Source: an uncultured virus (IMG/VR IMGVR_UViG_3300032167_000030) | Taxonomy: Duplodnaviria; Heunggongvirae; Uroviricota; Caudoviricetes | IMG/VR virus record: IMGVR_UViG_3300032167_000030 | Length of the DNA: 64,000 bases | Strand: one strand, 5' to 3' | In this document: one piece after another, positions 1-47,945 of the stretch | Position numbering within the stretch: position 1 is the first letter of the stretch | Layout: each line of letters begins with the position of its first letter | Program-made: the position numbers and the translations under genes | Notes under the pieces: generated by a model | Databases searched by the model: none | What the model was told of the DNA's origin: nothing | Seen by the model: only the letters and a program-made list of their open reading frames with translations

Positions 1-2
1 AA

Positions 3-2468
3 TGTAAGGTTGATTTTAATGATCCTAAATTCTCTTTAGTAAGATTTAAGAAACTTTGTAACATTCTATATAAGATTTCTAATGGTATTACTCTAGATAA
101 GGATGAAGAAACTGAATTAATTGAAAGAGACGTTAATCAGGAAATAACTAATAGAATCAATAAAGAACTAAACATTGATTTTGGTAATGAAATAAAAGCT
201 AGTTCTTTAAAGCAGATTTCTAATACTGATCCTCATGTTGAAATAGCTAATCTTGTTAAAGAAAAGATAGTTAATGGATTAAGTCTAAACACTAAACTTT
301 CTCATAGTAGTAAGGATTTAGATTTAATGGATAAGATAGAAAAAACTATAAACGTTAAATCTAGTCTTTATGATAATGAAAATGACTTAGAGGATAGCTT
401 GAACAATGATAAAAAATTCTTACAGTATCTAATAGACTTAGGTGATAATCAAACTACTGTTTCTGAGAAAAAAGTAGAACAACTTAAGGAAAAACAGAAA
501 AAAGTAGACGTTTCTCTTAAGAAAGATGAAAAACCTGTTTCTATAGATAGTATTATAAAAGAACATTCAGTTCATAACATAGAATCTAAAAATATCAAGA
601 TAGATACATTGAATGATGAAGTCAAGAAATGTACTCTAAAAGATTTAGATAGAAACTATGTTAAAAATCAAAAGGATAGAGACTTGATAAAGGTTCTATC
701 TGCTTTTAATGATGACCCTGAATGTCCTATCTATGTTACTAACCTATCTAGAGAAGATATTTCTACTGAGTTAGATAAAAAAGAACTAATAAAGGTTACC
801 TATGAAGATGGTTGGGGTAATAAGCATTTAGTTAACATCCAAATGCCTATCATTTATGATAACTCATTCATGTATCTAAATGACCATAAGATTTCTATAG
901 GTAAGCAGTTAATGAAACTTCCTATAACTAAGAATAAGCCAAACGAAGTTTCTATTTCTACTGATAAGAACAAGATGTTCTTTTGGAGATTTAATCAGAA
1001 GCTATCTTCTAACTCTGATAAGCTAAAGAACTTTATTCTAAAAGATGCTCCTAATCATAAAGGAAGTATTAAAGTAAAGCTAGGTAATTGTGTTACTATC
1101 AATTCCAAGTATCAGACGATAATGGAATACGATGAGATTTCTAAGTATATGCTTAACTTTACTTTTAACGACAATGTTTTCTTTTCCTTTAATAGAGAGA
1201 CAGTTAATGCAGAAGTAGCAGAATTCTTAGATTATGCAGTAGATGATAGTATACCTGAAAATGAGTACTTATTAGGTGCTCTTAAAGGAAATTCAATGAT
1301 TTTTACTATCAATACTGAAACTGGATTAGTTAACTCTTATAAAGTAGTTTTAAATGAAGCAACTAGTATTGTTGAAACTTTAACTACTCGTAATTCTATC
1401 TTTGACCTATTCTTAGATATCTTTAAGATTCATGGATATGATGACCTTTATAAGAAACTTCTAACTCAAAAAACTTCTACTAAGTTCATGTATGTTAGAA
1501 CTAAAGTAGCTGGTACTATGATACCTTTGGCTATTTTAACAGGTTTCTATTTTGGTTTAGAGAACGTTATGATAAGATATGGTATAGAGTATGAACTTTC
1601 AGAAAAAAAGAAGCAAGTAGATGAAAGTGAACAATCTCTATGGTCATCTATAAGATTCAAAGATGGTTATCTGAACTATAAGTCTACACCTCTAAGAAAT
1701 AGTCTCTTTATGAATGGTATAAACGATATTCCATTCTTAAGAGAAGTAGAATTCTCTCAAATGAATTCTAAGGAAATCTATATTGAGTATTTCGATTTAC
1801 GTTATGGTAAACGAAATCTAGCAAAAGGTTTCCAAAATACTTTGAATTTCATACTAGATCCTAAGACTAAGGAAATTCTAGAGTATATGAAGCTACCTAG
1901 TGACTTACTAGGAGTTTTACTGTATTGCAATACTCTATTAGACAATAACAGTTATGTTAATGCTAATAGTATGGAAAACTATCGTTTACGTAGTATTGAA
2001 ACTGTTAATGCAACTTTATATGATGTACTGTCTGAAGCAGTAAGAGAATATAAAGATGCTTATAAATCTGGTTATAAAGATCGTAAAATTTCTTTACACA
2101 GTCCAGATGCTGTAATAAAGAAACTAGTAGAATCACCTATCGTTGAAGCATACTCAACTTTAAGTCCTGTATTAGAAATTGAAAGACTTGGTTCAACAAC
2201 TTATAAGGGTATTGGAGGTACGAACCTAGATGATGCCTTTACCCCTCAGATGAGATCTTATGATCAATCTATGGTTGGATTATTGGGTATCAGTTCCCCC
2301 GATAGTAATAAAGTTGGTGTTACTCGTCAGCTTTCCTATAGTCCTAAGATTACTAATAACTTAGGTTTTATTGATAATAATACTGATGTAAATGATTTAG
2401 CTGCAACTAACATGTTGACAGCTGGTGAACTATTATCATGTTATACTAGTTTACATGCCGATCCACCT
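3..2468 (+). CDS. Multisubunit RNA polymerase beta-like subunit, exon 1 (5'-partial; frame open from the window edge)
   Basis: Frame is open from position 3 into ORF 327..2498. Contains SPDSNKVG (cf. RpoB TPEGPNIG). Ends HADPP, which joins RIGMQTQQ in exon 2 (cf. RpoB DDANRALMGSNMQRQ). Confidence 0.85.
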
Positions 2469-2604
2469 AAAATAAATCTGGGCCTCAATTTTGTTTGAGG
2501 AAATCTCTTTAATTGCTGGAAAATATTAAGAAAGTATAATCAGCAGCTATAAAAATGTAAAAAAGAAGGGACATTTATACTGATCCCTTAACAGTATATT
2601 AAAA

Positions 2605-3798
2605 TTAAAGTTTATAAATTTTTAATGAATTTGCTTTGGCTCTAATATTCTTAGTGGACTTATGTGTTTTAAGTAATTCAGGAATATCAGGACCTTGTGT
2701 AGGATATTTTTCCTTAAGGATAGCTACTTCCTCATCGGTCCACGAACAATGAATTTTTACCTTATCTAAATTCAGTACTATTGCTTTATCCCTAATACTA
2801 TTAATAGTACGAGCCTTAAGTAATTCAGGAATATTAGATCCTTGTGTAGGATATTTTTCCTTAAGGATAGCTACTTCCTCCTCTGTCCAAGGATTTACTT
2901 TATTAGTTACATTATATTCAGTAGCCTTAATCTGAATTGCCTGATTAGTATGTGTCTTAAGTAATTCAGGAATATTAGATCCTTGTGTAGGATATTTTTC
3001 CTTAAGGATAGCTACTTCCTCCTCTGTCCAAGGATTAATTAATCTATTAATTAAACACAGATAATTTGACTTAGTTACAATTGACTGTCTAGTATGTGTC
3101 TTAAGTAATTCAGGAATATTAGATCCTTGTGTAGGATATTTTTCCTTAAGGATAGCTACTTCCTCCTCTGTCCAAGGATTACCTTTTTCTTCACTTAAAT
3201 TTAATCTAACTGCTTTATGTCGAATAGATGTTTTAGTTCGTTTCTTAAGTAATTCAGGAATATCAGGACCTTGTGTAGGATATTTTTCCTTAAGGATAGC
3301 TACTTCCTCCTCTGTCCAAGGATTAAGTTTTGGATTAATTTTAACTGGTTCGATTTTCCGTATTTTTAGTATACTTGCTTTACTACGAATTTTATCAGCA
3401 GTTCGTTTCTTAAGTAATTCAGGAATATTAGATCCTTGTGTAGGATATTTTTCCTTAAGGATAGCTACTTCCTCCTCTGTCCAAGGATTTTTTTCACTAG
3501 TTAAACCGAATTCAAATGCAGCACTATTAATAGCCATTTTAGTACGAGTCTTAAGTAATTCAGGAATATTAGATCCTTGTGTGGGATATTTTTCCTTAAG
3601 GATAGCTACTTCCTCCTCAGTCCAAGAACTACCTTTAGGTAAATTAACTAAATTTAGTTTATGAGCTTCAGCTTTAATAGCACAATTAGTATGTGTCTTA
3701 AGTAATTCAGGAATATTAGATCCTTGTGTAGGATATTTTTCCTTAAGGATAGCTACTTCCTCCTCTGTCCATAAATTAAATTTTCGTCCTTTGTTCAT
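2605..3798 (-). CDS. Intron-borne antisense Myb/SANT-like tandem-repeat protein (8 repeats)
   Basis: 8 x WT(E/D)EEVAILKEKYPTQG(SN/PD)IPELLK, each followed by a variable helix. SD GAAAGG upstream. No nuclease motif seen. Confidence 0.8.
   Translation of the reverse strand: MNKGRKFNLWTEEEVAILKEKYPTQGSNIPELLKTHTNCAIKAEAHKLNLVNLPKGSSWTEEEVAILKEKYPTQGSNIPELLKTRTKMAINSAAFEFGLTSEKNPWTEEEVAILKEKYPTQGSNIPELLKKRTADKIRSKASILKIRKIEPVKINPKLNPWTEEEVAILKEKYPTQGPDIPELLKKRTKTSIRHKAVRLNLSEEKGNPWTEEEVAILKEKYPTQGSNIPELLKTHTRQSIVTKSNYLCLINRLINPWTEEEVAILKEKYPTQGSNIPELLKTHTNQAIQIKATEYNVTNKVNPWTEEEVAILKEKYPTQGSNIPELLKARTINSIRDKAIVLNLDKVKIHCSWTDEEVAILKEKYPTQGPDIPELLKTHKSTKNIRAKANSLKIYKL
2669..3771. repeat. Eight ~75-78 bp near-identical direct repeats separated by divergent spacers of roughly 63-88 bp (coding)
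   Basis: TTAAGTAATTCAGGAATATTAGATCCTTGTGTAGGATATTTTTCCTTAAGGATAGCTACTTCCTCCTCTGTCCA near 2669, 2815, 2956, 3100, 3244, 3408, 3550 and 3697. Confidence 0.95.
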
Positions 3799-4031
3799 AA
3801 AACTTTACAACCTTTCTAAATTATAATTAAAATATACTATAAATATAATATATAATTAAAATTTTACACTTTACATTTTTATAGTTCAACGACTAATTAG
3901 TACATTCTAACTCTAGAATGGAAATAAGAGAAGATTCATAATAGAATCTTGATATAGTCTCCTCTCTATTTTATAATAGAGCAGTTGTTAAGACAACGCT
4001 TGTAGTTTTAAGTTCTACAAGGAAGATATTG

Positions 4032-4284
4032 AGAATCGGAATGCAAACGCAGCAAGCGAAACATATAGTTCCCACTGAAAAACAATCTAGAGCCTTATAT
4101 GGTTCTGGTATTGAACGTACACTACCTTATACACTATCATCTGACTTTGTATCAGTAGCAGAGCAAGATGGTGTAGTAGAAAAAGTAGATGAAAAGAATG
4201 AATTAGCAATAATTCGTTATAAAGATGGTACTTCTGATGTAATCGATATATCAGAACGTATTAGTAAAAACTCCAATGGTGGTT
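4032..4284 (+). CDS. RNAP beta-like subunit, exon 2
   Basis: RIGMQTQQAKH...SKNSNGG; the last T joins TT of exon 3 to give Phe. Confidence 0.88.
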
Positions 4285-4424
4285 GAAATTTGTATTGATC
4301 ACCTTTATAAATTTCCTTAATTGCTGGAACATACAAAAAATTGTATAATCAGCAGCTTATCTTAAAAATGTATTAAAAAAAAAGAGAGCCTAAAAAGACT
4401 CTCTCTTTGAATGTAGTAAAAGGA

Positions 4425-4562
4425 TTATTCATCCTTAAACATAAAGGGGTGAATTACTTTCTGAAAGAACTGACTTACAGCCAATCCAGCAGCATATGCA
4501 GTTGCAAAGAGAGAAGTAATATAAACGATTTCCTTAATGACTTTCTTGGTGTTGTTTTTCAT
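4425..4562 (-). CDS. Small (45 aa) putative membrane peptide, intron 2 cargo
   Basis: SD AAGGAG; MKNNTKKVIKEIVYITSLFATAYAAGLAVSQFFQKVIHPFMFKDE. Below the ORF-track cut-off. Confidence 0.6.
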   Translation of the reverse strand: MKNNTKKVIKEIVYITSLFATAYAAGLAVSQFFQKVIHPFMFKDE

Positions 4563-4595
4563 GATTAAAATCTCCTTTTCTTATTTATTTTTGGA

Positions 4596-4802
4596 TTAAA
4601 TAGGTTTATAGATATCAGAATTTAAAACATCATAGAGAATAGCAATAGTTTTTCCAATTTTTTCAGCGACATCTTTGTTTATATGAGGAAATGCAGGATA
4701 TGAGATATTACTTACTGCTTGCTCTAATTTATCAATTGCAGTTTCAATTAGATCAAAAAATCTTATATTCTCAGTAGTATCTCTAATAGTTGTATTCATC
4801 AT
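4596..4802 (-). CDS. Hypothetical protein, intron 2 cargo
   Basis: 68 aa ORF with SD AAGGAG. Confidence 0.7.
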   Translation of the reverse strand: MMNTTIRDTTENIRFFDLIETAIDKLEQAVSNISYPAFPHINKDVAEKIGKTIAILYDVLNSDIYKPI

Positions 4803-4823
4803 AGTGAAAATCTCCTTTTCTTT

Positions 4824-5363
4824 TTATGTATCTTGTGGTACAGCAGAAATGGCTTCATAACATCCTTTTACGTTATAATGAAATAAATCTTTATAAATAA
4901 TAGCGGATTCAAACCTAATTTCTCTAAGACTTCCAAACTTAGCAGTATGTAATTCAATGGCTTCTTGTTTTGCATCAAATTCTGTACAGCTAGATACGGT
5001 ACGATGAAAAATAGATTCTTTTCCAGTACACGCATCTTGATATTTCAGAGTTACATCATAAAGTTTTTCGGTTAATGCGTCTTTGAACATAGGAAATTCT
5101 TTTTCAAAATCCATAAAACCAAATGTATCGATGTAGTCTTCAATAGGATCTTCATCTGGGCAAAGAATTTCAGAAAATCTTACAAATAGTTTTGCATTAT
5201 CTTCGAAACATTTTATAGTCTTTTGATCGGGATTAGGATCATACGTGCCATTTGCTAACTTAATCATGTCTTGGTTAGAATAGATACTGGCACACATGGC
5301 TTCATAAAGAAGATAGACTTCTTGGGGAGTGAGTTCGATATTAAAAGTTTTATTAGTAGACAT
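4824..5363 (-). CDS. Hypothetical protein, intron 2 cargo
   Basis: ORF 4824..5405; SD AAGGAG favours a start at 5363 (MSTNK). Confidence 0.7.
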   Translation of the reverse strand: MSTNKTFNIELTPQEVYLLYEAMCASIYSNQDMIKLANGTYDPNPDQKTIKCFEDNAKLFVRFSEILCPDEDPIEDYIDTFGFMDFEKEFPMFKDALTEKLYDVTLKYQDACTGKESIFHRTVSSCTEFDAKQEAIELHTAKFGSLREIRFESAIIYKDLFHYNVKGCYEAISAVPQDT

Positions 5364-5438
5364 AATATGTAAATTCTCCTTTATTATAAAAACTAAAAGA
5401 GACATTTATAGTGATCTCTTAACACTCTGCTAGATTTG

Positions 5439-5795
5439 TTATCTACGCTTCATCTGATCAAAGAAATCTCTAAAAACTTGGCTATTATTTCCATCTTCAT
5501 AGATTTCCAGATCAATGTGATGTCTCTGACAGATTCTTTTGAAAGTATCAGATTTAAAGAAAGCCTTATCTCTACAATCCAGTTCATAATGATTGTAGAA
5601 ACGTCCATCTCTAGTTTCGTAGGTATCGGTAGCACCGCCCCACATACAGATTTCTTTGAAAAGGTCATTGATGAATCTGTCTGTAGTGGATACATAAGCA
5701 CGATAACCATATCCAGTGCTTAAGCAACTGAAACCTTGTTTAGTCGGATTACCAATAAGATTCATGAAGATATGACCATTTTTAGTGTTGTTCAT
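5439..5795 (-). CDS. Hypothetical protein, intron 2 cargo
   Basis: 118 aa ORF with SD GAGGAG. Confidence 0.7.
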   Translation of the reverse strand: MNNTKNGHIFMNLIGNPTKQGFSCLSTGYGYRAYVSTTDRFINDLFKEICMWGGATDTYETRDGRFYNHYELDCRDKAFFKSDTFKRICQRHHIDLEIYEDGNNSQVFRDFFDQMKRR

Positions 5796-5816
5796 TATCT
5801 AGTCTCCTCTTTGTAA

Positions 5817-6263
5817 TTAAAAAATCTCACTTTGAATGTAATCATTATAAGCATCTACTATTCTGTTTAAAGATGATGTACTGATTACATCATCATAGAT
5901 TACTGGATAGTAAAATTCTGTAAAGATTTCGTTTTTAAGATTACTATAGATACTTTCTTTGATTAGTTTATCTTTCAACTTTTTTGCATACTTAATTCTA
6001 CGTAGAGTAGTATCATTAAGAGGTTTATCTTTACAGAGATTATAGTTGATAAAGTTTCTAAGTAGTCTAATAGCTCCTGCTAGATTAAGTTTAATACTAT
6101 CTTCGTATGCTCCTAAACTTATTTTATCAATTTTTGTTACAGAGAATGATTCTACAACGTTAGGATATATCGATTTATCTATTACAAAGAAAATGATACG
6201 TTCTTTGTCGAGTTTATAAATTGCTCTTTCAAAATAGTAGAATTTATAAAATATACTTGTCAT
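5817..6263 (-). CDS. Hypothetical protein, first gene of intron 2 cargo
   Basis: 148 aa ORF, SD AAGGGAG, directly downstream of the promoter motif at 6298-6328. Confidence 0.7.
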   Translation of the reverse strand: MTSIFYKFYYFERAIYKLDKERIIFFVIDKSIYPNVVESFSVTKIDKISLGAYEDSIKLNLAGAIRLLRNFINYNLCKDKPLNDTTLRRIKYAKKLKDKLIKESIYSNLKNEIFTEFYYPVIYDDVISTSSLNRIVDAYNDYIQSEIF

Positions 6264-6297
6264 AAATAGTTCTCCCTTTTAGCTTTATTACACATTT

Positions 6298-6328
6298 ATA
6301 ATATATATTCATAAAATTTCAAATTACG
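6298..6328 (-). promoter_or_regulatory. Putative early promoter CG-N19-TATATATTAT (one of 9 copies)
   Basis: Same spacing at 3845(-, TG variant), 8466(-), 19323(-), 33548(+), 34461(+), 35492(+), 46081(-), 47745(-). Confidence 0.7.
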
Positions 6329-6464
6329 TATTTTTAAGATAAGTTCAACGACTATATTGCAGTCAAATGATTGTATAATAGGAAAGTACAATAAGATATA
6401 GTCTAATCTAAGTTGTAATAACTTAGTAGTTATAGAAGTAATGACTCTATACAAATACAAAATG

Positions 6465-7372
6465 TTTACATTTCCAATAAGAAAGATCTACTTTTCAAAG
6501 AAGGTCAAAAATTCAAAAAAGATGATATCTTAGCTAAAAACAGTAATTTCTTCTTAGGTAATAAACCTGATAGTATTACTTACACTCAAGGCTATCTAGC
6601 AAAAGTAGCTATTGCACAGGGCGATTATACTCTAGAAGACTCCTCTGTTATTACTGATGAGATTTCTGAAGGTATGTCTAGTTACATTACTATGGTATCT
6701 ACTGTAAATCTAACGCCTAATACTAACATTCTTTACATGGCAAAGAAACATCAGCATATCAAAGCTAGTGAATCTCTGATTACGTTTGAGCATACTTTTG
6801 AAGATGCTGCTGCTAATCAGATTCTAGATAGTTTAGATAACGATGATTTTGCTAGTTTCGTAGAAGAAATGGGTAAAGATAGTAAGAAGGCAAAATATTC
6901 AGGTGAGATTATAGATATCAAGGTTTACTATAATGTACCTAAAGAAATCTGTTCTGATTCTATACAGAAATTACTAAATGATTATGCTAAAGAAGTTAAC
7001 ACTAGAAAGAAGATAGTAGAACATACTGATAACAAATCTACTTTCTTCCCCAGAACTGAACAGATTAAAGATGAAAAGATTAAAGGTATAGATTTTGAAG
7101 GTATTGTAATCGAATTCTATGTAAAACATAGAGATAGATTAAAGACTGGCGACAAGGTTACTTATGGTACTGCAGTTAAGACTATCGTTAGTGACGTATT
7201 ACCTAAAGGAGAAGAACCTTTCTCTGAAAGATATCCTGATGAAAATATACTAGCAATCTATTCACCTATGAGTATTGTATCTCGTATGACTACAGATACT
7301 TATAACATGCTATATACGAATAAGCTCATAATTGAGATGAAACGTAAAATGAAAGAGATCTGGGAAGCCTAA
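6465..7372 (+). CDS. RNAP beta-like subunit, exon 3
   Basis: GDYTLEDS (cf. GYNFEDS), GDKVTYGTAVK (cf. GDKMAGRHGNK), SPMSIVSRM (cf. NPLGVPSRM). Confidence 0.88.
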
Positions 7373-7381
7373 TCTAACAAT

Positions 7382-7419
7382 TTTTATCCTAATACCTGAA
7401 ATATGGTATTAGGATAAAA
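7382..7419. terminator. Intrinsic terminator-like hairpin after RNAP gene
   Basis: TTTTATCCTAATACC...GGTATTAGGATAAAA inverted repeat. Confidence 0.6.
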
Positions 7420-7472
7420 CTTATAAAAAAAGAAGGGACATTTATAGTGATCCCTTAACACTTTTATTAAGA

Positions 7473-7760
7473 TTACTCTTCGCTAAATTCAATAAGTTCA
7501 GCATTATAGCAAAAAGCAACTCTATGAAGAATTTCATTAGTCCACATAGGATAAGAAATTTCCTTCTTTTCTATAAAAGGACGTCCATCTTGAATATGCT
7601 CAAAATAGCATTTACCAGCTTCATATGTAAAGAAATACTGATCGTCATCAAATTTATGATCAAATTTGATAGCAGAATATTGGTAAAAATTATGTATCAA
7701 CTGGTATTCAAGATTTTTTGCAGTTTCTATGTCTTCAATAGTGATGAGTTTATTAGCCAT
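7473..7760 (-). CDS. Hypothetical protein
   Basis: 95 aa ORF, SD GAAAGGA. Confidence 0.7.
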   Translation of the reverse strand: MANKLITIEDIETAKNLEYQLIHNFYQYSAIKFDHKFDDDQYFFTYEAGKCYFEHIQDGRPFIEKKEISYPMWTNEILHRVAFCYNAELIEFSEE

Positions 7761-7805
7761 TGTATGTTTCCTTTCTGGCTTAAAAGCCTGTGAGGATGTA
7801 TATTT

Positions 7806-8435
7806 CTAACTATTTACTAAACTAAATGTATAGATTAGACTATTTTCATTTTTAGATAAAGTAATATCATCTAGTTTAAAGAAGTTTATTGAAAGATCAT
7901 AACCTTTTTTATTAACTTCCCTAATAGTAGCTAATAAAGCACATTTAGTTAAGAATTTTTTATTTTTGATGATATTTTCTCTAAACTTATTGAAATCAGG
8001 TTTTTCATCATTATTCTTTTTCATGAAAAATTTTACCTTTATGAAATCAAAATCCTCTATTTTTTCTATTGTATTTTCAATATAAACCATAGGATATGAT
8101 ACAATTTCATTAAGTTTAGTTTTATGCATGAAAAATATTGGATCTTGTAAAGAAATTTTATAAATAATTTTTTTCAATTCATCTATATTCATACCATCTT
8201 TGATATTTTCTTTTATCAAATTTTTTAAATGATTAAGATTTGTTCTTTCAATAAACTCAGGTAAAAATTCTTTAATAAATCCTTCAAAGCTAATACGACT
8301 TTCAAAAGAACTAAAATAAAATCCTCCATATGGTTTACGTCGGTTATAATGATGAACAATAAAGGTATAAGTATCACAGTCGAAAGATATTGCTGAATAT
8401 GGACGTTCAGTAGTATATAAGTGAATAAAGTTCAT
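7806..8435 (-). CDS. Hypothetical protein
   Basis: 209 aa ORF, SD AAGGAG, promoter motif at 8466-8496. Confidence 0.75.
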   Translation of the reverse strand: MNFIHLYTTERPYSAISFDCDTYTFIVHHYNRRKPYGGFYFSSFESRISFEGFIKEFLPEFIERTNLNHLKNLIKENIKDGMNIDELKKIIYKISLQDPIFFMHKTKLNEIVSYPMVYIENTIEKIEDFDFIKVKFFMKKNNDEKPDFNKFRENIIKNKKFLTKCALLATIREVNKKGYDLSINFFKLDDITLSKNENSLIYTFSLVNS

Positions 8436-8545
8436 ATAGTCTTCTCCTTTTATTTTTCTATAGGTATAATATATACCTATAATTTTTCAAATTACGAATT
8501 TTTACTTTTCTTTTATTTATATATTCTTTTTATAGAATTTATTAT

Positions 8546-8788
8546 ATGAAAGGATATGAAATTATGTTTTACACAGATCCTCCATCAAGAAAGCAAATCA
8601 TAGCAATGGATTCTATTATTCGTTACTTACCTCATCTAAAAGAGGAAAGAAATAAATGTGATACTAGTTATAAAGCCAGTCAATTTATTTCTAAATATGG
8701 ATTTTCTTCTTATGAAGCTAGAGCTACAGAAAAAGGACATATGAATGTTAGAGATTTCCTAAAATCTAAAGGAATTAATGTAGAATAA
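8546..8788 (+). CDS. Hypothetical protein
   Basis: 80 aa ORF upstream of 8802 on the same strand. Confidence 0.5.
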   Translation: MKGYEIMFYTDPPSRKQIIAMDSIIRYLPHLKEERNKCDTSYKASQFISKYGFSSYEARATEKGHMNVRDFLKSKGINVE

Positions 8789-8801
8789 GGGAACTGAAAA
8801 T

Positions 8802-9500
8802 ATGGCAAATATTAAACAGAATGTTAAAATTCAATTAAGAAGAGATTCTAAAGAAAATTGGAATGATGTAAATCCAATTCTTAGAAATGGTGAATTAGTT
8901 ATAGTACAAGATAAAGATGATGAAGATAATACAATAGTTTCATTTAAAATGGGTGATGGTATAAATCCATATAAAAATCTTCCATTTATACCACTTTTAG
9001 AAGCAATTAATAGTGGTTATATATATTTTGGTAAACCAGTTCAAATCAATGGAAAAATTACATTAGCTATAGATGATGTAAAGGAAGATAATTCAAATAA
9101 ATCTAAAATTCTATCTAAGAAGCAAATATTTGATTTAAAGTTTAAGTATCTAGATATGATTCCTGAAGATGGTAGCGGTAAAAAAATAGAAAATTGGTGG
9201 GAGAATTCTATAGCTTGGATTAATGTATCTATGAATAAAAAGATTTCTTTAGAATTTGCTAGAGAATTTAAGAATAACTTAGTTTGGGAAACATTGTGCT
9301 ATTATAATACTCTATCTGAAGAAATTATGAGAGAGTTTAGTGATAAGATTAATTGGAAGACAATTTCTAGTAAACAGATGTTATCTGAGGGATTTATAAG
9401 GGAATTTAAAGATAAGTTAGATTGGAATTGTATTCCTTACTATCAGAAATTATCTGAAGAGTTTATAGAAGAAATGAAAAAAGAAGATTATATAAAGTAA
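8802..9500 (+). CDS. Fusion of tail-fibre N-terminal-like (Mtd_N/hyaluronidase-N) domain and Trp-repeat domain
   Basis: IQLRRD..ENW...NPILRNGE...KMGDG...Y..LP, then W..IS..Q.LSE.FI.EF.D.L.W repeats. Confidence 0.65.
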   Translation: MANIKQNVKIQLRRDSKENWNDVNPILRNGELVIVQDKDDEDNTIVSFKMGDGINPYKNLPFIPLLEAINSGYIYFGKPVQINGKITLAIDDVKEDNSNKSKILSKKQIFDLKFKYLDMIPEDGSGKKIENWWENSIAWINVSMNKKISLEFAREFKNNLVWETLCYYNTLSEEIMREFSDKINWKTISSKQMLSEGFIREFKDKLDWNCIPYYQKLSEEFIEEMKKEDYIK

Positions 9501-21410: not shown

Positions 21411-23201
21411 TTGGCGGATAAGAAAAAAGAATTAACTTTAAAAGATCAGCTAGATCAATTTAGAGCTGTATCTAAATTGTCTACATCTGAATTATATGGA
21501 ACTACTGAAAAATTTGCAGATGATAACTATAAAGATCTTTCTGACATTAGAAATACTATAGATAGTGTTATGTTTAGATATAAGAAATCTACTGGTGATG
21601 ATATCATAGAATTTTTTAATGCAGTTAACATGAAACATAATTCTAATGTTGGTCGTCCTAGTCGTTCTGCAAAAACAGAACATGTTAAAAAACAACTTTC
21701 AGATATTGAAAGTATGGTAAATAATACTGATATCTATTCTATGAATGAATTATTCAGTCAAGAATCAGGACGTTTCCAACTTTATAGTAGTTATCAGCTA
21801 ATCTATGAGAATATACCCCAGATGGCTCAAGCCTTGGATACTTATGTCGATAATATAATGTCACCTGATGATTTTACTAAAGATATCTTTAACATCTATC
21901 TAGATGATGTTATTATTTCTACTACAGAAAATAAAGGTGAAAATGTTAAGATAATCGATAATTGTAAGGATCTAATTAAAAAGTATAAATTAGACACTCA
22001 ATGTAAGAGAATTATAAAAGAAACTTTAAAATTAGGCGATCAATTTGTTGCAGTTTTAAAGATGAACGATGAAATTTCAAAAGTAATGTTATCTGAAGAT
22101 TATAAAAGTAGTATGGAAGCTACTAATAAGTCTTTAACAGAATCAGATATTACTTTAACTGATGATGAAATTGTTCAACTAGCTGAAATGTTTGATTTAT
22201 CTAATGTAAAAATCCCTCAGAATAATCCTCCTTCAATATCTGATTATAAAAATTATACTGATAAGAAAAAACTAAATGAAGCTTATCAACATGACTTAAA
22301 AATCTATAACGAGGAAGTAAAAGTATTTAATGAAGCTAAACAAAGGCTCTCACATGATATAGCTGAGATTCTAAATAAGAACTTTGTTTTTACAGAGGAT
22401 TCATCTTGTCTATTAGAAGACAATGTAGAGATATCTAAACAATTTGGAATTAGTAGTAAGAAAAACTTATTCAATAATTTCCAAAGCCAAAATAAAGAAG
22501 ATAGAAAGAATCTAAATCCTTTCTCTAAAACTAAATCTACTGATGAAATTCGAGTAGGTGGTTCTGTATTAAAAGTACTAAAACCTGAGAGAGTTATTAA
22601 GCTAGTTTTAGATGACTTTGAATATGGTTACTACTATATTGAGAATCTAGAAAATAATGCTGATATGCTAACTACTGGTAGTTACAGTGTATCTTCTAAC
22701 ATCTTTACTTCTTTTAAATCACAGGCAAATGAAAAACCAGATATCATTAATGCTAAGTATAGATTAATAACTGATGTCTTTGTTAAGAATATGGCAAAGA
22801 AAATTGATAAGAAGTTTATCAATAAAAATCCTGATTTTAAAAATACTGTCTATCAGTTACTAAAGCAGAATTACTTACTTAATAAACAAGTTAGAATGAT
22901 TTATTTGAAAGCTAGTGAAGTAGTACACTTCGGTAGTGGTACTGAAGATTACTATGATAGTATTTATAAATCCATTCTATTTAGTGCTAAGCTATATTTA
23001 GCAGTTTTAACTTCACAGGTTATGTTAAGACTAGTAAGATCACCTGAGAAACGTGCTTTTTATGTTGAGGTAGATCTTGATAATGATACTGAAGCTGTAG
23101 TACAACAGTTCATGAGAGATATTAAGACTAAAGATATTAAGATGAGTAACTTTGGTCAAGATATTAATACTCTTTTAAATGCTATAGGAACGTTCCAAGA
23201 T
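21411..23201 (+). CDS. Portal protein (T4 gp20-like), exon 1
   Basis: RLVRSPEKRAFYVEV (cf. gp20 RITRAPDRRVWYVD). Spliced product is 842 aa. Confidence 0.85.
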
Positions 23202-24302
23202 TAAATAATAGTCGTCTATATTAGTGATAGTATAGAGAATTATTTCAAGAATTGCTGGAAAAATCTGTACAAGTATATTTAAAACTGGGTACTAGAAACA
23301 ACAATTTATTAAAAATAGTTTCTAGGGGGCAGTTTTATGATAAATAAAATTATTGATGGAATTATAGTAAAATTTGATTCCGATATAGTTTGTTCTGAAA
23401 ATCGAATTATAAAAGACATTAAAGCTATTAAAGATCATTTATTAGAAATAAATGAGTCCGATAGATATTTTGAATGTCTTTATAAATTAGAAGAAGATTC
23501 TAAATCAAAACATAATCGTCTTTTTATAAAAACTAATGATAAATGTGGACATGGTGATTATATAGTAAGATTTGATAAATTCAAAAAAGGATCAAGATGT
23601 CCAGAATTTGATTGTAAATTAAAACGTGTAAATAAAAGTAAAGAAATTAATAAAAGAAAAGAAATAATAGAATTTGTTAATAATAGTAATTATGATTTTT
23701 TTGATGATGATATAAATAAATCAATAATTCAAATGTCTGAAAAAGGATATAAACTACGTTTATTATGTCCTTATTGTAAACATCTTTATGAAACAATGTA
23801 TTACAATTTTAAAGCAGGATATGGATGTGGATGTAGACATGGTTCTAGAGCTGAAGAAAAGATTCAATCATTCTTAGAATCAAAAAATTTTAATTTTGTT
23901 TCAGAAAAGAAGTTTGACGATTTGGTTTATATCGAAAAATTAAGATTAGATTTTTATTTACCAGATTATAATATTGCAATTGAATTTGATGGTGAGCAAC
24001 ATAAAAAAGGATGGAATAAAGATCCTGAAAGTTTGAAAATCACCAAAATTAGAGATCAGATAAAAGACGAATATTGTAAAAATAATGGAATAACTCTTCT
24101 AAGATTTGATAGAAAAGATTATAAAAATCTAGAAGAAATACTTGACAGATCAATCAGCAGCCTTATAAAAGGTTCAAAGACTATGTAGTATATAAGTTGT
24201 ATACTCTGTATGAAACAACTATAAAGATAGTTGAAGATATAGTCTATTCTCATATGAAAATATGAGTTTAGAGTTTAACAAACTCTGAAATAATAAGCAA
24301 AG
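23202..24302 (+). mobile_element. Group I intron 3 (1101 nt) in portal gene, with homing endonuclease
   Basis: P 23250, Q 24152, R GTTCAAAGACTA 24172, S 24234, terminal G24302. Splicing gives FQD|YYIP. Confidence 0.9.
23337..24188 (+). CDS. Intron-encoded putative homing endonuclease (Zn-ribbon + DUF559/Vsr-like nuclease domain)
   Basis: CPYC-type Cys pairs; LRLDFYLPDYNIAIEFDGEQH...RDQIKDEYC...GITLLRF. Confidence 0.8.
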   Translation: MINKIIDGIIVKFDSDIVCSENRIIKDIKAIKDHLLEINESDRYFECLYKLEEDSKSKHNRLFIKTNDKCGHGDYIVRFDKFKKGSRCPEFDCKLKRVNKSKEINKRKEIIEFVNNSNYDFFDDDINKSIIQMSEKGYKLRLLCPYCKHLYETMYYNFKAGYGCGCRHGSRAEEKIQSFLESKNFNFVSEKKFDDLVYIEKLRLDFYLPDYNIAIEFDGEQHKKGWNKDPESLKITKIRDQIKDEYCKNNGITLLRFDRKDYKNLEEILDRSISSLIKGSKTM

Positions 24303-24350
24303 TATTACATTCCTGTAGTTGAAGGACAAAAACCTGTTGAAATAGACACT
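24303..24350 (+). CDS. Portal protein, exon 2 (48 nt)
   Basis: YYIPVVEGQKPVEIDT (cf. gp20-family DYWLPRR..GKGTEITTLPG). Confidence 0.85.
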
Positions 24351-24563
24351 TAAAGTTTAGGGTAGGTGTCTCTAAATTTTCTTAATTGCTGGAAAATGCT
24401 TAACGTACAATCAGCAGCCTTTTAAATAAGGTTCAACGACTATATAGTACGATGTAAATACATTGGATATAGAAAACATAGAAGATATAGTCTGATCTCT
24501 AGTTTAAAATCTAGAGCATAATTCAAAAGGTGCAAGCTTAATAGACTTGTATTAACAACTATG
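24351..24563 (+). mobile_element. Group I intron 4 (213 nt, no ORF) in portal gene
   Basis: IGS GGTGTC pairs with exon GACACT. P 24384, Q 24409, R 24431, S 24482, terminal G24563. Splicing gives EIDT|IPGM. Confidence 0.92.
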
Positions 24564-25253
24564 ATCCCTGGCATGAATGTAGAGATCACTAATGATTTCT
24601 TAGAATATCTATTAAAGTCTATGATTTCTGGTATGGGTATTCCCCCTGAATTCTTAAGTTATTCTGAACAAACAGAATTTGCTAGATCACTAGGAATGAT
24701 GAACGGTAAGTTTGTTCGTTCTATTCTTGTTTGGCAGAAGATTTTAGGTGAACAATTCACTAAGATGTTCCGTTTACTATATCAGAATGAATACCTTAAT
24801 GATTATGATCTTAAGAAAGCTGAAAAGAAACTAAAGAAACTTAATCAAAAGCCTAAAGATGATACCGTATTAGTTGATACTGAAGAAGAAAAGGATCATG
24901 TAGCTAAAACTAGAGCAGAATTAAAAGATACTTATTTCAATCTAGAACAACTATCTGTTAAATTCCCTCCCCCTCAAGCACTTAACATGACTACTATAAC
25001 TGAACGTATCAATAATTCTAGAGATATAATAGATTTTATAACTAACACTATGGTATCTCAGGATAATGCTGAATTACAAACTGAATTTAGACGAGAATTA
25101 ACTAAAGATATTCTTAATACTTTTGATTGGAGTAAATACGATAAAATCCTTGAATCCGCAAAAGTTAATAAAACAGAGACTTCTATTAAAAATTCTTCTA
25201 TTGAACCTACTGATGACGCATCATCAATGGGCGGAGGAATGGGAGGATTCTAA
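24564..25253 (+). CDS. Portal protein, exon 3
   Basis: IPGMN...YLLKSMISGMGIPPEFL...KFVRSI; continues the portal alignment. Confidence 0.85.
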   Translation: MPGMNVEITNDFLEYLLKSMISGMGIPPEFLSYSEQTEFARSLGMMNGKFVRSILVWQKILGEQFTKMFRLLYQNEYLNDYDLKKAEKKLKKLNQKPKDDTVLVDTEEEKDHVAKTRAELKDTYFNLEQLSVKFPPPQALNMTTITERINNSRDIIDFITNTMVSQDNAELQTEFRRELTKDILNTFDWSKYDKILESAKVNKTETSIKNSSIEPTDDASSMGGGMGGF

Positions 25254-41996: not shown

Positions 41997-42180
41997 TTAA
42001 TAACCAGGAGTCTGAGGAACTGCTCCGACATTATTCTTAATAGCAATACGGCAGATTAGAGGCGTGAACTCCTCAAGAGCATGTCTCTTAGTCATCATTA
42101 GACTAGGTACATTAGGCATATTAGGATCACGGTAACCACGCTCAACGTTGAAGGTATAAGGATAGTATTTGTAAGTCATA
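41997..42180 (-). CDS. Major capsid protein, exon 2
   Basis: L-MTYKYYPY...PSLMMTKRH; in frame after splicing. Confidence 0.85.
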
Positions 42181-42415
42181 CTTTTAGTTTTTATACATTC
42201 ATTAGATGTATTTAATCATTAATTTTCATTAATGAACAGACTATATCTTTAACCTAACTATTCTCGCTATCATTAGGTCATTTTGTACTAAATTATCATT
42301 TGATAATCATATAGTCGTTGAACCTTTTATAAAAGGATGCTGATTTACCTTATAGTATTTCCAGCAATTCTCAAAATAATTCTATATTGTTGCCAATATA
42401 GTGGCCTATTAATTA
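42181..42415 (-). mobile_element. Group I intron 5 (235 nt, no ORF) in major capsid gene
   Basis: Minus strand: IGS GGCC pairs with exon GGCT. P 42369-42358, Q 42345, R 42323, S 42249, terminal G at 42181. Confidence 0.9.
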
Positions 42416-43920
42416 AGCCTGTCGATACCAGGAACGAAGAACATAATAAATGCACCAGAAGGAACTAAGTCACTAGAGACCATTTCATACTTGTTAGCAC
42501 CACTAAAGGCACCGAGATTGAAAGAAACGTCAACACCAGACATCTGGTCAGAAGTATGATTGAAGACCCAGTCAACATTAGGAATGATCTGCATGTCAAT
42601 GGGGTTACCAATGATCATGAACTTACCACCATGGAACTTAGCATCAGTCTTCATCTTGATAGCAAAGTAGTCAATGACAGTCTTTAGTTCTTCACGCCAT
42701 GCTTTAGGAGTACCATTGAAGCCAGCAGAAGGAACCATGTTGAACTCACCTAGATACTGGATGTTGTTAACTTCGATAGACTTAGCTAGGAAGTTATAAA
42801 TCTCAATTTCTAGCTGCTGTGCAACAGTCTGAGACATTAGGTCAACAACTTCAGCTGCACCATCGATATTGTAGATAGCCATAGTGTCCTGTAGCCATTC
42901 GATGGGTAGAGGAGCATTTAGGTGGCTGCCAACACCGATAGTAACGTCCTTAGTTAGAACGTCGAAGCTGACGGACTGACCATAGTCATTAGCTTCCTGA
43001 GATAGACGAGCGTCAACCATAACAGCAGAGATTAGGCCGTTGGAGGACATTAGAGTCATCTTGCCTTCAGTGTAGTCAACTTTACCTAGTAGAGTATCAT
43101 AGACTTCGCCATAACGCTTGGTTAGACCAGTAACAGGATCGGTATACTGAACAGGAATAGCAACCTTAGCATAAACTAGAGCCTGTAGATCAGTCTTGAT
43201 ATGAACTCTTAGAGTGACTTCATCGATATCAGCAGGAACTTCAGGTAGAGAAGCAGCAGCCTTTAGGACAGCAGCCTTGTCAGTAACGACATGCTCAACA
43301 TAGAAGACCTTATCAATGGTGTCAGTACCCTTTAGACCAGCAACATCGAAGCCAACAGGCTGACCTTCATAATCAGCAGAGTCAATCTCGAATAGGCTGA
43401 AGTCAGTCATAGGTAGAACTAGACCTTCTGCAGGGTTACGGAAACGAGGTAGCTGAGCCTCAGTGTTACCTAGATAGTTGATAGCATCAGGTAGTTCTTT
43501 CTTATTACCATTAGCATCCATTAGATATGCCTTGGTGTAGGAAATAGCGAAACGAGGAGTAGCAACTACCTGAGTAGGAATAGCGTGCTTTAGAGCAACC
43601 TTTGCCCACATCTTACGAATGGTAGGCATAGATAAGCCAGCGATCTGCTGTACACCAGAGACAGAAGCTTCCTGTAGCATCTGAGTACGAGCATTATCCA
43701 TTAGCTGATTGAAGTTCTCAATCTGATCGGGTTCCATACCCTCTAATAGATGATCTTTATATTCGTTAAATAGAGTCTGTTCAGATAGAATCTCTTCCAT
43801 ACCCTGATGGGAGGTCATCTGAATGCCCTTATCTGCAAAGAATTCTGCAGCTTCACGTAGTACATCGGTAAAACCATCGTTCATTCTGGAACGAGCGGTC
43901 TGACGGTATTCAATAGACAT
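42416..43920 (-). CDS. Major capsid protein, exon 1 (spliced product 562 aa)
   Basis: Strongest codon bias in the window; located near the protease; T4 gp23-like C-terminal region (EWLQD...YNIDG..EVVDLMS..VAQQLEIEI). Confidence 0.8.
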
Positions 43921-45558: not shown

Positions 45559-45792
45559 TTGAGAGATGAAAAAATTAAGGGATATATCATTTCTGAAGAT
45601 GCTATATCTACTACACCTAGAATTATTAGTGATAAATCTGGTCAACCTACTGTAATTGAAACTATATTACAAGAGGGTGATGTACAGAATCGTAATAAAC
45701 GTATTTATCCTACTGATACTATTAAGAAAGCTTTAACTTCTGAATATGTACAGGAAAGATTAAATACTAAGTCTTGGGTTGGAGAAGCAGGT
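45559..45792 (+). CDS. Prohead core protease (T4 gp21-like), exon 1
   Basis: LQEGDVQNRNKRIYP...WVGEAG. Spliced product is 264 aa. Confidence 0.88.
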
Positions 45793-46265
45793 AAAATAAG
45801 GATTGCCTAACCATAATGATAACATATGGTTTTAACTATTCTTAAATGCTGGAAACTATAAAGAATTTAGTTTATACAATCAGCAGCTTAGATAAAAACT
45901 AAAAAAAAAAGAAACCCCATTATAAGGATATAAATAACCTTTCTTTAGATTATCTAACTTTTGGGAAGTTAATGGGATTTTCTTTTTTTAGAGAATATTT
46001 CTTCTTTTGTATACTATGTTAAAAAGTTCTAAAGTATTATTTTTATTATAATACAGTTTTCTTTTGTATAGTACAAAGTGATTATATATAGCTATAATAG
46101 TACGCTTTACGTTTTATCTAAGTTCAACGACTATAAAAGAGTTTTAGTAAGCTCGTAATAGAAAAGTATTCTTATTTATAAGGATAGAGATATAGTCTAA
46201 TCTAGGTAGAAATACTTAGCTTTTTAATGAAGTTATAGAATTAACGATTCTATATAAAGAAAATG
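45793..46265 (+). mobile_element. Group I intron 6 (473 nt) in protease gene
   Basis: IGS GCCT pairs with exon AGGT. P 45844, Q 45878, R 46122, S ~46189, terminal G46265. Splicing restores GEAG|HP. Confidence 0.92.
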
Positions 46266-46521
46266 CATCCATTATCTCCAACTGTTGAAAGACAATTGTA
46301 TATTGATCAATCTAATTTATCTCACTTAATTACTGATGTATGGTGGGAAGGTAATTTACTAAAAGGTCGTGTCGAAACCTGTTTAACTGAAAGAGGTAAA
46401 GACATGCAAGGTTTAATCAGACAAGGAATGCAAGTAGCATTCTCAATGAGAGGATTTGGACCTGTTTCTGAAAAGAAAGGTGATATTACTTATATCAAAG
46501 ATCCTCTACACATTTTAACGT
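46266..46521 (+). CDS. Prohead protease, exon 2
   Basis: HP...SHLI...AFSMRGFG (cf. gp21 GVSSRG.G). Confidence 0.88.
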
Positions 46522-47945
46522 AGATTGTGCGATTATAACTAGTAATAGTTATACTAAATCTCTTTAATTGCTGGAACATACAAAAAATTGTATTATCAGC
46601 AGCTTAAAAACGTAAAAAAAAGATCCCATTATAAAATAATGGAATCTTTTTATAGAATTATTTAATAAGTTTTAGTCCTTCCTTAAAGGCTTTTCCGATA
46701 ATTGCATTTTTATTTCTAGTTTTAAGTAATTCAGGAATATTGGATCCATTAATTGGATAATACTTTTTAAGAAGATCTAATTCATAATCTGTCCAACTAT
46801 CTTCCAATTTAGATACTCGTTCAATTCTAGCTTTAGTTTTAATTGAACTTGTAGTTCTAGTTTTAAGTAATTCAGGAATATTGTATCCATTAATTGGATA
46901 ATACTTTTTAAGAAGATCTAATTCATAATCTGTCCAAGGATCATTATCTCGTTCACCTAATCCTAATCTAATTGCTTGATTAGTAATTGCCACTACAGTT
47001 CTAGTTTTAAGCAATTCAGGAATATTGGATCCATTAATTGGATAATACTTTTTAAGAAGATTTAATTCATCTACAGTCCAATGTTTTTTACTTTTTCTTT
47101 TTGGATTATTTGGACTAATTACAAATAACTTTTCCTTACGTGCCATGTCAATAATTGAATATGCAGTTCTAGTTTTAAGCAATTCAGGAATTTTGTATCC
47201 ATTAATTGGATAATACTTTTTAAGAAGATCTAATTCATAATCTGTCCAAGGATCATTACACTCTAATTTTAATAATCCTTCGATATTAGCTCTACTCCTA
47301 ATTGCATTTTCAGTTCTAGTTTTAAGCAATTTAGGAATATTAGATCCATTAATTGGATAATACTTTTTAAGAAGATCTAATTCATAATCTGTCCAAGAGT
47401 CTTCTGTTTTAGTTAATCCTTCGATATTAGCTCTACTCCTAATTGCATTTTCAGTTCTAGTTTTAAGTAATTCAGGAATATTAGATCCATATGTCGGATA
47501 ATATTTCTTAAGAAGATTTAATTCATATTCAGTCCAAGGTTCATTAAAATCGAGATTAACTAGATTCATTTTAAATGCTTTTGTTCTAATTGCTACTGCA
47601 GTTCTAGTTTTAAGTAGTTCAGGAATATTTACACCTTTAGTTGGATATTCTCGTCTAAGAATTTTTAATTCTTCTTGCGACCAATGTTTTTTAGATGTAG
47701 ACATAAAAACACTCCTTATGTTATGTAAAGATTAGTACACATTTATAATATATAAATAAAAATTTTTTAATTACGTTTTTAAGTTCAACGACTATTAGTA
47801 CATTCTAAATCTCTTAAGAATGGAAATAAGAGAAGTCTTTTATACCGCACATATAGAAGATTTTGATATAGTCTCACCTTTGTTTTATAACAAAGTAGTT
47901 GTTAAGACAACACTTATAGTTTAAAGATCTATAAGGAAGATACTG
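46522..47945 (+). mobile_element. Group I intron 7 (1424 nt) in protease gene
   Basis: P 46566, Q 46594, R 47783, S 47865, terminal G47945. Splicing gives ILT-Y-DWVLHPS. Confidence 0.92.
46658..47704 (-). CDS. Intron-borne antisense Myb/SANT-like tandem-repeat protein (7 repeats)
   Basis: 7 x WTDYELDLLKKYYPINGSNIPELLKTRT-like units, each with a variable helix; SD AAGGAG; paralog of 2605..3798. Confidence 0.8.
   Translation of the reverse strand: MSTSKKHWSQEELKILRREYPTKGVNIPELLKTRTAVAIRTKAFKMNLVNLDFNEPWTEYELNLLKKYYPTYGSNIPELLKTRTENAIRSRANIEGLTKTEDSWTDYELDLLKKYYPINGSNIPKLLKTRTENAIRSRANIEGLLKLECNDPWTDYELDLLKKYYPINGYKIPELLKTRTAYSIIDMARKEKLFVISPNNPKRKSKKHWTVDELNLLKKYYPINGSNIPELLKTRTVVAITNQAIRLGLGERDNDPWTDYELDLLKKYYPINGYNIPELLKTRTTSSIKTKARIERVSKLEDSWTDYELDLLKKYYPINGSNIPELLKTRNKNAIIGKAFKEGLKLIK

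Follow-up and report, generated by a model that had tools for sequence, protein, structure and literature searches.

Five opposite-strand genes in the P6 loop of a group I intron interrupting a jumbo phage RNA polymerase gene

The DNA analysed here is a stretch of 64,000 nt (the window) from an uncultured virus, read from the minus strand of the 319,626-bp IMG/VR virus record IMGVR_UViG_3300032167_000030, an AR9/PBS1-like jumbo phage. Three colinear pieces of the beta subunit of a multisubunit RNA polymerase, all mapping on phrog_14872, are found on the plus strand of the window, and the beta gene is interrupted by two group I introns, located at 2469-4031 and 4285-6464. The second, denominated intron 2, hosts five open reading frames (ORFs) on the opposite strand, set in the loop closed by the P6 stem. 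Judging from sequence, intron 2 is quite probably a functional cis-splicing group I intron of the AR9 lineage, whose P6 loop provides, on the opposite strand, a self-contained expression slot for an exchangeable payload. This view draws on the anatomy of the intron, on its conservation and covariation, on intron-less alleles of the host gene and on the turnover of payloads among relatives, all directly observed in the DNAs compared.

The interrupted beta subunit gene

The nearest isolates are the Bacillus phages AR9 and PBS1, with 48-49% identity over the final exon of the beta gene. In AR9, the orthologous gene g189 encodes the beta subunit of the virion polymerase and is annotated as a join of 6 pieces, with the HNH gene g190 inside one of the introns. 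The portion available of the AR9 transcription study calls g189 a late gene, and places g190, together with its own early promoter, within one g189 intron (PMC5312081). In the virus analysed here, the start of the beta gene precedes the window by about 621 nt. A single AACA-N6-TA is found upstream of the start, at -211, and is uninformative as an AR9-type late promoter.

Exon 1 (3..2468, plus strand, phrog_14872 positions 389-1006) is open at the window start. Exon 2 (4032..4284, plus strand, positions 1005-1088) consists of 84 codons plus 1 nt, and is 52-65% identical to the corresponding regions of AR9 and of the metagenome contig L021. Exon 3 (6465..7372, plus strand, positions 1162-1392), the last of the gene, is 49% identical to AR9 g189. 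Joining 4284 to 6465 yields the reading ..NSNGG-F-YISNKK.., in frame and with a single final stop. Homologs lacking the intron agree with this junction, as exactly one codon separates the exon 2 and exon 3 matches in the metagenome contigs L021 and L022 and in Listeria phage LPJP1. An intron is found at the intron 2 site in AR9, in Bacillus phage BpSp (vB_BpuM-BpSp, KT895374), in two contigs of a related phage (L010 and L011) and in the window; it is absent in L021, L022, LPJP1 and MarsHill. Intron 1 is similarly missing in L010/L011, L021, L022 and LPJP1, in all of which exon 1 is directly joined to exon 2.

Anatomy of intron 2

Intron 2 is 2180 nt long (4285..6464, plus strand). The 5' splice site follows U4284 and the last residue is G6464; both the U.G pair at the 5' splice site and the terminal G at the 3' splice site are in place, and the group I core elements P, Q, R and S are all present. 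P1 (4278..4303) results from the pairing of GGUGGUU (4278-4284) to GAUCACC (4297-4303). It comprises 7 bp, with the U4284.G4297 wobble at the cleavage site, and the same layout is found in the paralog located at 24341-24515. The 5' core (4312..4356) includes the P3 5' strand UUUCCU (4312-4317), P (4318-4330) and Q (4347-4356); in the 3' core (6329..6464), R is located at 6343-6354 and S at 6394-6403. P4 (4322-4327/4349-4354, 6 bp) was identified both in the fold of the insert-deleted intron and in the alignment of 15 paralogs, P5 (4331-4336/4341-4346) in the fold. P6 pairs 4355..4370 with 6329-6344 through 13 Watson-Crick pairs (4356-4368/6331-6343), or 16 including wobble ends, and closes a loop of 1.96 kb. 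P7 (6350-6356/6397-6403, 7 bp), a P7.1-like hairpin (6358-6364/6369-6375), the P3 3' strand AGGAAA (6380-6385), P9 (6408-6415/6419-6426) and a second 3' hairpin (6431-6436/6446-6451) complete the structure. All these elements are on the plus strand.

Paralogs scoring above the Rfam cut-off have the same R and S as intron 2, and a Q that differs at one base. Separate covariance models of the 5' and 3' halves were built from six ORF-less paralogs only, intron 2 being left out. They match intron 2 at 4266-4356 (45.6 bits, E 1.7e-6) and at 6343-6474 (66 bits, E 8.1e-9), and these are the best matches found in the window outside the training sequences. The insert-deleted intron folds to -59.6 kcal/mol (z = -5.4), and P4, P5, P6, P9 and the further 3' hairpin are all recovered. 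In 10 of the 14 paralogs scored for P3, the best helix is located 25-30 nt past R and features compensatory changes, UUUCCU/AGGAAA in intron 2 versus UUUUCU/AGAAAA, UCUCUU/AAGAGA and ACUCA/UGAGU in others. The remaining four have longer R-S regions, and in these the script placed the best-scoring P3 helix elsewhere. A preliminary description of this DNA had located about 2 kb of sequence between Q and R of a group I intron. The mapping of Q, R and S, the fold, the P3 covariation and the half-model matches on both flanks all agree with this, and assign the 2-kb stretch to the P6 loop.

These data bear on the possibility that cis-splicing has been lost, the beta subunit being made as separate polypeptides or from trans-spliced halves, and the minus-strand genes being ordinary intergenic genes. 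Polymerase subunits are often encoded by separate genes in jumbo phages, according to the accessible part of a published account (PMC7598289), the BpSp pieces are annotated as separate genes, the insert measures as much as 5.2 kb in a relative, and Rfam misses intron 2. Even so, this hypothesis is very unlikely. Exon 2 alone would be an 84-aa fragment, exon 3 begins mid-codon and has its first in-frame ATG 70 codons in, and no AACA-N6-TA/G was seen by eye on the plus strand just before R. The core elements are all intact, as in paralogs that look spliceable, the P3 and P6 pairings across the insert are kept by compensatory changes, and homologs exist that feature one contiguous ORF.

The antisense transcription unit

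Read on the minus strand from inside the P6 3' strand, the P6 loop includes in order a promoter, a 28-nt leader, ORFs A and B, a hairpin motif, ORFs C, D and E, and a terminator. The predicted promoter (6291..6330, minus strand) is of the AR9 early type. GAATATATATTAT (6310-6298) is followed by AAATGT and by the G at 6291, the predicted start, and the whole element reads ..AAAAATACGTAATTTGAAATTTTAT-GAATATATATTAT-AAATGT-G. Twelve of 13 positions, and the G after 6 nt, fit the AR9 early consensus AAATATATATTAT-(6N)-G(+1), described as experimentally defined in the available text of the AR9 study (PMC5312081). The upstream ..AAAAATACGTAATTTG.. element overlaps the P6 3' strand. An extended two-part version of the promoter, ..CGTA..(about 18 nt)..TATATATTAT, occurs at about ten sites in the genome, four of which are in intron P6 loops and one before the cassette adjoining the beta gene; given this placement, the variant may travel with introns. 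A promoter for the host polymerase (TTGAAA...TATAAA) was also considered and dropped, as a sigma-70-type scan returned 36 sites versus 35.6 expected, with no enrichment.

The unit is closed by a putative intrinsic terminator (4375..4408, minus strand), a 13-pair stem followed by a U run identified by a terminator scan, which ends a few bases short of the P6 5' strand. It is one of three terminator-like sites detected in the 2300-8700 region; on the plus strand, the insert contains one weak terminator-like site only. Both signals had been pointed out in the preliminary description, which set the promoter motif at 6298-6328 and a hairpin plus U-tract near 4375-4408, and both are found there on the minus strand. 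A copy of a conserved hairpin motif, resembling a weakened terminator, lies between ORFs B and C (5383..5426, minus strand). It is 88.6% identical to the 2585-2627 segment of L010, and may split the unit into a two-gene and a three-gene module.

Genes in the P6 loop

ORF A (148 aa, 5817..6263), the promoter-proximal gene, has the Shine-Dalgarno sequence AAGGGAGA. It is followed by ORF B (118 aa, 5439..5795), ORF C (4824..5363; 179 aa from the ATG preceded by a Shine-Dalgarno, 193 aa from the first ATG), ORF D (68 aa, 4596..4802) and ORF E (45 aa, 4425..4562), the latter with the Shine-Dalgarno AAAGGAGA. All are on the minus strand, at the places and with the sizes (148, 118, about 179, 68 and 45 aa) initially reported. 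The Shine-Dalgarno initially assigned to each of them is corroborated by counts, since the cargo strand of the insert has seven RGGAG motifs, five of which directly precede the five start codons, and the other strand has one. Codon usage is of the coding type. In a log-likelihood analysis trained on 87 long ORFs of the same genome, each of the five scores best in its own frame of six, with values of 0.31-0.59 per codon versus 0.53 +/- 0.14 for the training ORFs (A, 0.307; C, 0.440; D, 0.593; E, 0.375).

ORF B belongs to a conserved family; 22 homologs, 52-71% identical to it, were found, and 39 columns of the alignment are invariant. For ORF C, one homolog (50% identity) and one marginal match were retrieved by an exhaustive search of 1.84 billion representatives; in word-indexed searches, ORFs A and C found only themselves. 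ORF D is related to a 77-aa ORF carried in the corresponding intron of L010 (38% identity over 55 aa, 43.5 bits). ORF E features a hydrophobic segment which is probably membrane-spanning. Neither a tblastn search with ORFs A, B, C and D nor a megablast search with the 2300-8600 region gave matches among 50,697 phage records.

The preliminary description had seen no HNH, GIY-YIG, LAGLIDADG or PD-(D/E)xK motif in these proteins. This agrees with scans of Pfam, PHROGs, NCBIfam and PADLOC, in which no homing endonuclease, other nuclease or named family was assigned to ORFs A-E. Structure prediction, which the preliminary description had proposed for each ORF, was informative in part. ORF B was modelled confidently by AlphaFold (predicted local distance difference test, pLDDT, 82.5), yet its fold was matched neither by Foldseek against PDB (best E 0.03) nor by VIA-align wide, where the best hit (Z 5.1) is a protein of unknown function. 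The models of ORFs A and C are of low confidence, that of ORF C (AlphaFold pLDDT 44.6) being unusable. Leads obtained from the ESM Atlas were discarded. That of ORF A, a LIC12162-family cluster, reached 0.92 by features, with 169 shared against a guide value of 170 and a poor model, and is unreliable; that of ORF C reached 0.78, and Atlas leads are at chance level.

The cargo looks like a set of accessory early genes rather than a homing endonuclease; a role in host takeover or counter-defence is a guess. Alternatively, intron 2 may be an ordinary mobile intron with an unrecognised mobility protein, for which ORF A would be the obvious candidate, as a new factor for homing or maintenance, the other four ORFs being hitch-hikers. 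ORF A occupies the promoter-proximal place held by the single gene in one-gene cassettes, and the presence or absence of the intron among relatives implies mobility. Faint leads exist for ORF A, namely Pfam XisH (E 0.096) and ESM Atlas structure matches, LAGLIDADG clusters among them (TM 0.35-0.40, from a model with pLDDT 0.46). As this model is poor and that of ORF C is unusable, a novel or cryptic nuclease could hide among ORFs A-E. This scheme is nevertheless unlikely. The family scans found no nuclease in any of the five ORFs, and the lack of ORF A homologs would be odd for a working mobility gene. Single-gene antisense cargoes found elsewhere are not nuclease-like by eye, and the sense intron ORF of MarsHill is a clear HNH endonuclease, which indicates that such genes are detectable in this lineage.

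Soundness of the assembly

Contigs from four runs, obtained from fecal metagenomes of several studies, cover 4352-6323, 4341-5295, 4260-4535 and 6330-6521 with no differences; for some runs, part of the stretch is without cover among the contigs listed. The runs listed as containing the stretch include no RNA run. The 4260-4535 contig bridges exon 2, the 5' core, P6, the terminator and ORF E, and the 4341-5295 contig runs from Q into ORF C. ORF A was found on 16 contigs, and ORF B on 17, in the protein collection. The architecture of the 6323/6324 junction is present in three separate assemblies of a relative.

The preliminary description had named misassembly of the insert, to be checked by long reads, as one of the things that might undo it. 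An assembly artefact, or a chimera, is conceivable because the record is a metagenome assembly, in which unitigs break at 4352 and 6323/6324, at repeats shared with other introns, and because one contig of run X2 attaches other sequence upstream of 6324. It is, all the same, exceedingly improbable. Contigs derived from runs of other studies, such as 4260-4535 and 4341-5295, show no differences, ORFs A and B recur on many contigs, the three assemblies of the relative share the chassis with cargo, and the isolate BpSp carries antisense genes in the same intron.

Comparison of the window with the full genome sequence revealed 10 differing positions, nine at the two ends (1-4, 63994-64000) and one at 44979, none near intron 2.

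Payloads in related phages and neighbouring cassettes

L010 and L011 are near-identical contigs of a related gut phage, whose exon 3 protein is 85% identical to that of the window. They lack intron 1 and host intron 2 at the same site. A third contig of this kind, L009, is cut upstream of the promoter and informs on the 3' side only. At the nucleotide level, L010/L011 match the window at 87% from exon 2 to 4387 and again at 83% from 6292 onwards, a single base short of the predicted start. Between these points L010 features 5.2 kb of DNA with 11-12 minus-strand ORFs, only one of which is homologous to an ORF of the window, namely ORF D. L010 keeps the promoter and the terminator of intron 2. 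The P6 stem of L010 has one extra A.T pair, resulting from an extra A on one strand and an extra T on the other.

An ordinary two-gene cassette (7416..8500, minus strand; 209 and 95 aa) is located downstream of the beta gene, and has a similar promoter and the conserved hairpin as terminator. The likeness between this cassette and the cargo unit, emphasised in the preliminary description, holds in part. The promoters are similar and the small motif is shared, as the weaker copy at 5383-5426; the unit does not end in that motif, its terminal hairpin being different from the conserved one of the cassette (7416-7462). The 95-aa gene of the cassette weakly resembles the last gene of the L010 cargo; each is followed by the 47-nt hairpin motif, and the two copies are 97.9% identical. 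A homolog of ORF B is found outside introns in L013/L014, after an early-like promoter and downstream of an intron-rich gene. The near-identical motif, the extra-intron ORF B homolog, the clustering of three motif copies and the weak match of the 95-aa cassette gene together suggest a traffic of modules between the intron slot and early cassettes nearby. The 7416..8500 cassette is a probable exchange partner of intron 2.

The hairpin motif (about 45 nt, ..GTGTTAAGGGATCACTATAAATGTCCCTTCTTTTTTT) is found at 2560-2600, 5383-5426 and 7416-7462 in the window, and at 2581-2627 and 2995-3039 in L010. Only three copies are present in the 320-kb genome, all within 2591-7458. Its 97.9% identity between two phages in which the surrounding genes differ exceeds the conservation that a plain terminator needs. 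The arrangement does not correspond to an integron-like array. The motif follows some genes only (one internal copy here, two in L010), and no recombinase family was detected by Pfam and PHROGs scans among the cargo or its neighbours.

The layout across the intron lineage

The genome hosts 15 Q-R-S triplets. In seven, Q and R are 10-15 nt apart; two contain a sense ORF (257 and 322 aa), and one has a gap of 198 nt with no ORF. The other five, intron 2 among them, share one layout: a promoter-like site on the antisense strand lies 28-35 nt short of the 3' boundary of the gap, the 5' boundary is marked by a terminator, and the P6 stem measures 10-16 bp. Their payloads vary: none in one (234 nt), an 89-105-aa membrane protein, Myb-repeat proteins of 348 and 397 aa, and the five ORFs of intron 2. 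A P6 stem of 7-16 bp is kept by every insert-bearing intron.

The 397-aa protein is encoded in intron 1 (2469..4031, plus strand), which is matched by the covariance models at 2461-2547 (43.3 bits) and 3884-4033 (34.4 bits). The ORF (2605-3798, minus strand) is in the P6 loop; it contains eight Myb/SANT-like repeats (WTEEEVAILKEKYPTQG..IPELLK; Pfam Myb_DNA-binding, E 1.1e-18), and has its own early-type promoter and the conserved hairpin as terminator. As it is absent from the close relatives L010/L011, intron 1 is polymorphic. The 348-aa paralog (49% identity) is located in another intron of the window, at 46515-47955. By the half-models, the window hosts seven group I introns in total. Further ones are found at 23195-24309, with an apparently sense ORF inside, at 24331-24574, at 42169-42422 on the minus strand, and at 45786-47955.

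Searching IMG/VR by pattern, with the promoter core required 18-42 nt ahead of R, identified 27 loci. One antisense ORF (51-348 aa) is present in 11, inserts of 301-367 nt with no ORF of at least 40 aa in nine, and gaps of at most 66 nt in seven. None of the 27 loci has more than one antisense ORF, and multi-gene payloads are therefore exceptional. An exact IMG/VR search for the Q-P6 sequence of intron 2 retrieved only two contigs already known. Antisense single-gene cargoes include a helical protein of about 116 aa, a membrane-anchored acidic protein and Myb-repeat proteins. ORF-less P6 inserts of 234-367 nt, with an antisense promoter and a terminator-like end, are found at 45786-46277 in the window and in the loci L035, L038, L039, L043, L046-L049 and L056; they could be empty slots, small-peptide genes or small RNAs.

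In the homologous intron of BpSp, gp247 occupies P6 in antisense orientation, and an antisense promoter is located 7 nt ahead of R. A further gene, gp246 (306 aa, phrog_22902, of unknown function; L025 6878-7898), is antisense between R and S, meaning that this ribozyme accepts cargo in a second loop too. BpSp gp249 is antisense in another intron of the same gene, with the same layout. No named family could be assigned to gp246, gp247 or gp249.

Discussion

Promoter use, timing, splicing, translation and function are deduced here from sequence features and from what is known of AR9. Early in infection, the injected virion polymerase would start at the AR9-type promoter just inside the P6 3' strand, at about 6291. 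The transcript would cover ORFs A to E, being possibly attenuated at the internal hairpin, and would stop at the hairpin and U-tract by the P6 5' strand. Transcription of the beta gene would come late in infection and on the opposite strand, running through the whole cargo. The ribozyme halves would then be joined across 1.96 kb by the 13-16-bp P6 stem, and the intron would splice out. What is conserved, as a chassis, is the ribozyme core with its P6 stem, plus the promoter as far as the start site and the tail of the terminator; the transcribed payload is swappable, probably by recombination with ordinary early cassettes that share promoter and terminator.

A broader version of the scheme is more speculative, and we hold it as a tentative possibility. 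The P6 loop would be a portable platform, with an invariant early promoter and terminator incorporated in the stem of the ribozyme itself, in which accessory early genes are loaded, swapped and stacked by recombination with ordinary early cassettes. The array would spread between co-infecting jumbo phages by intron homing or co-conversion, into an essential gene that resists deletion. Moreover, both the late sense precursor and the 2.2-kb intron released from it are perfectly complementary to the early cargo message, and could couple in time the splicing of the polymerase gene and the shut-off of the cargo.

Some data weigh against the interpretation of intron 2 as a functional intron with an expression slot. 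RF00028 does not match intron 2, either in the window at gathering score or in the 2300-8700 region at E up to 10, presumably because the 2-kb insert splits the model; it matches nine places in the genome, two of them above cut-off, and one of the nine is an ORF-less window paralog (45.1 bits). Between P3' and P7', no P8 hairpin could be discerned either in intron 2 or in the shortest paralogs. About 8 nt separate AGGAAA from S in intron 2, and a hairpin is found there in longer paralogs only. The 10-mer core of the promoter is not enriched, since 14 copies are observed in this AT-rich genome and 9-21 in five simulations. With about ten sites, four of them intronic, the two-part element is not proven as the general early promoter of the phage. 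ORFs A and E gave no homologs in the searches made, ORF E having been compared by genome and locus comparison and by family scans only. The match of the 95-aa cassette gene to the last cargo gene of L010 is weak (28.9 bits, 30% identity). The 6323/6324 junction, in the AT-repeat of the promoter, is unbridged among the contigs listed. Finally, a 579-nt contig of run X2 matches 6324-6556 with one difference, and its first 346 nt are found nowhere in the 2000-9000 region; this contig could come from a strain with another payload, or be a graph artefact at the shared promoter repeat.

A published precedent is offered by AR9. As far as the available portion of the AR9 study tells, g190 and g189 feature an orthologous host gene, the same intron lineage, the same promoter consensus and an early-promoter gene within the intron of a late gene (PMC5312081). 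The AR9 cargo is, however, one HNH gene, on the sense strand of a different intron; here five antisense ORFs, none recognisable as an endonuclease, have their own terminator, and the payload is variable. The AR9 intron inserted at the exact intron 2 site is short and ORF-less, with about 26 nt between Q and R. BpSp combines a homologous intron, an antisense gene in P6 and an antisense early-type promoter by R, and a second intron is organized likewise. It differs in having one gene per loop, and its genes are annotated as hypothetical proteins beside "split" polymerase genes. No description of gp247, gp246 and gp249 as intron cargo was found in the literature searched.

Outside phages, partial parallels can be drawn. 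According to the part of the report available, the giant mitochondrial group I intron ND5-717 of hexacorals similarly tolerates many functional genes in one peripheral loop (PMC6545197). There, organelle core genes are hosted in the P8 loop and back-splicing is involved, unlike the antisense accessory genes, with own promoter and terminator, found here in P6 of a phage intron. Introns of nuclear rDNA can carry a protein gene opposite to the intron strand, a homing endonuclease gene; these are single His-Cys genes, eukaryotic, and expressed via spliceosomal and polyadenylation signals, as stated in the accessible sections of the source (PMC9548176). A fungal intron with five endonuclease genes (PMC11835236) and surveys of small introns in gut jumbo phages (PMC12880540) have also been reported, as far as the portions available of these papers indicate.

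Phage morons are promoter-gene-terminator units inserted between essential genes. The unit in intron 2 resembles them as an autonomous set of accessory genes that varies between related phages, and differs from them in being inside a ribozyme loop within an essential gene. Because of this location, splicing would take it out of the host mRNA, and it would accompany the intron in co-conversion.

The preliminary description knew of no multi-gene operon carried as cargo by a phage group I intron. This stands with some reservation. No description of multi-gene or antisense intron cargo of the intron 2 kind in a phage was found in the literature searched, the AR9 genome paper lying outside this scope; the one-gene principle has been published for AR9, and the BpSp genome holds two antisense genes.

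To our knowledge, group I introns of phages are regarded as minimal selfish elements, with no more than one homing endonuclease gene each. Across related phages, the gene content of this one ribozyme loop is 0, 1, 5 or about 12; the genes are on the opposite strand and have their own promoter and terminator, and the intron core remains under selection. Accessory genes seem to use the intron as a docking bay. Since BpSp is cultured and has the same layout, the idea can be tested at the bench, and the antisense arrangement would allow temporal regulation by RNA-RNA pairing, built into the locus, to be put to the test. If the interpretation is correct, annotation pipelines reporting these polymerase genes as "split" overlook the intron as well as what kind of genes it encloses, and introns in essential genes would be a protected, possibly mobile site for accessory or counter-defence genes.

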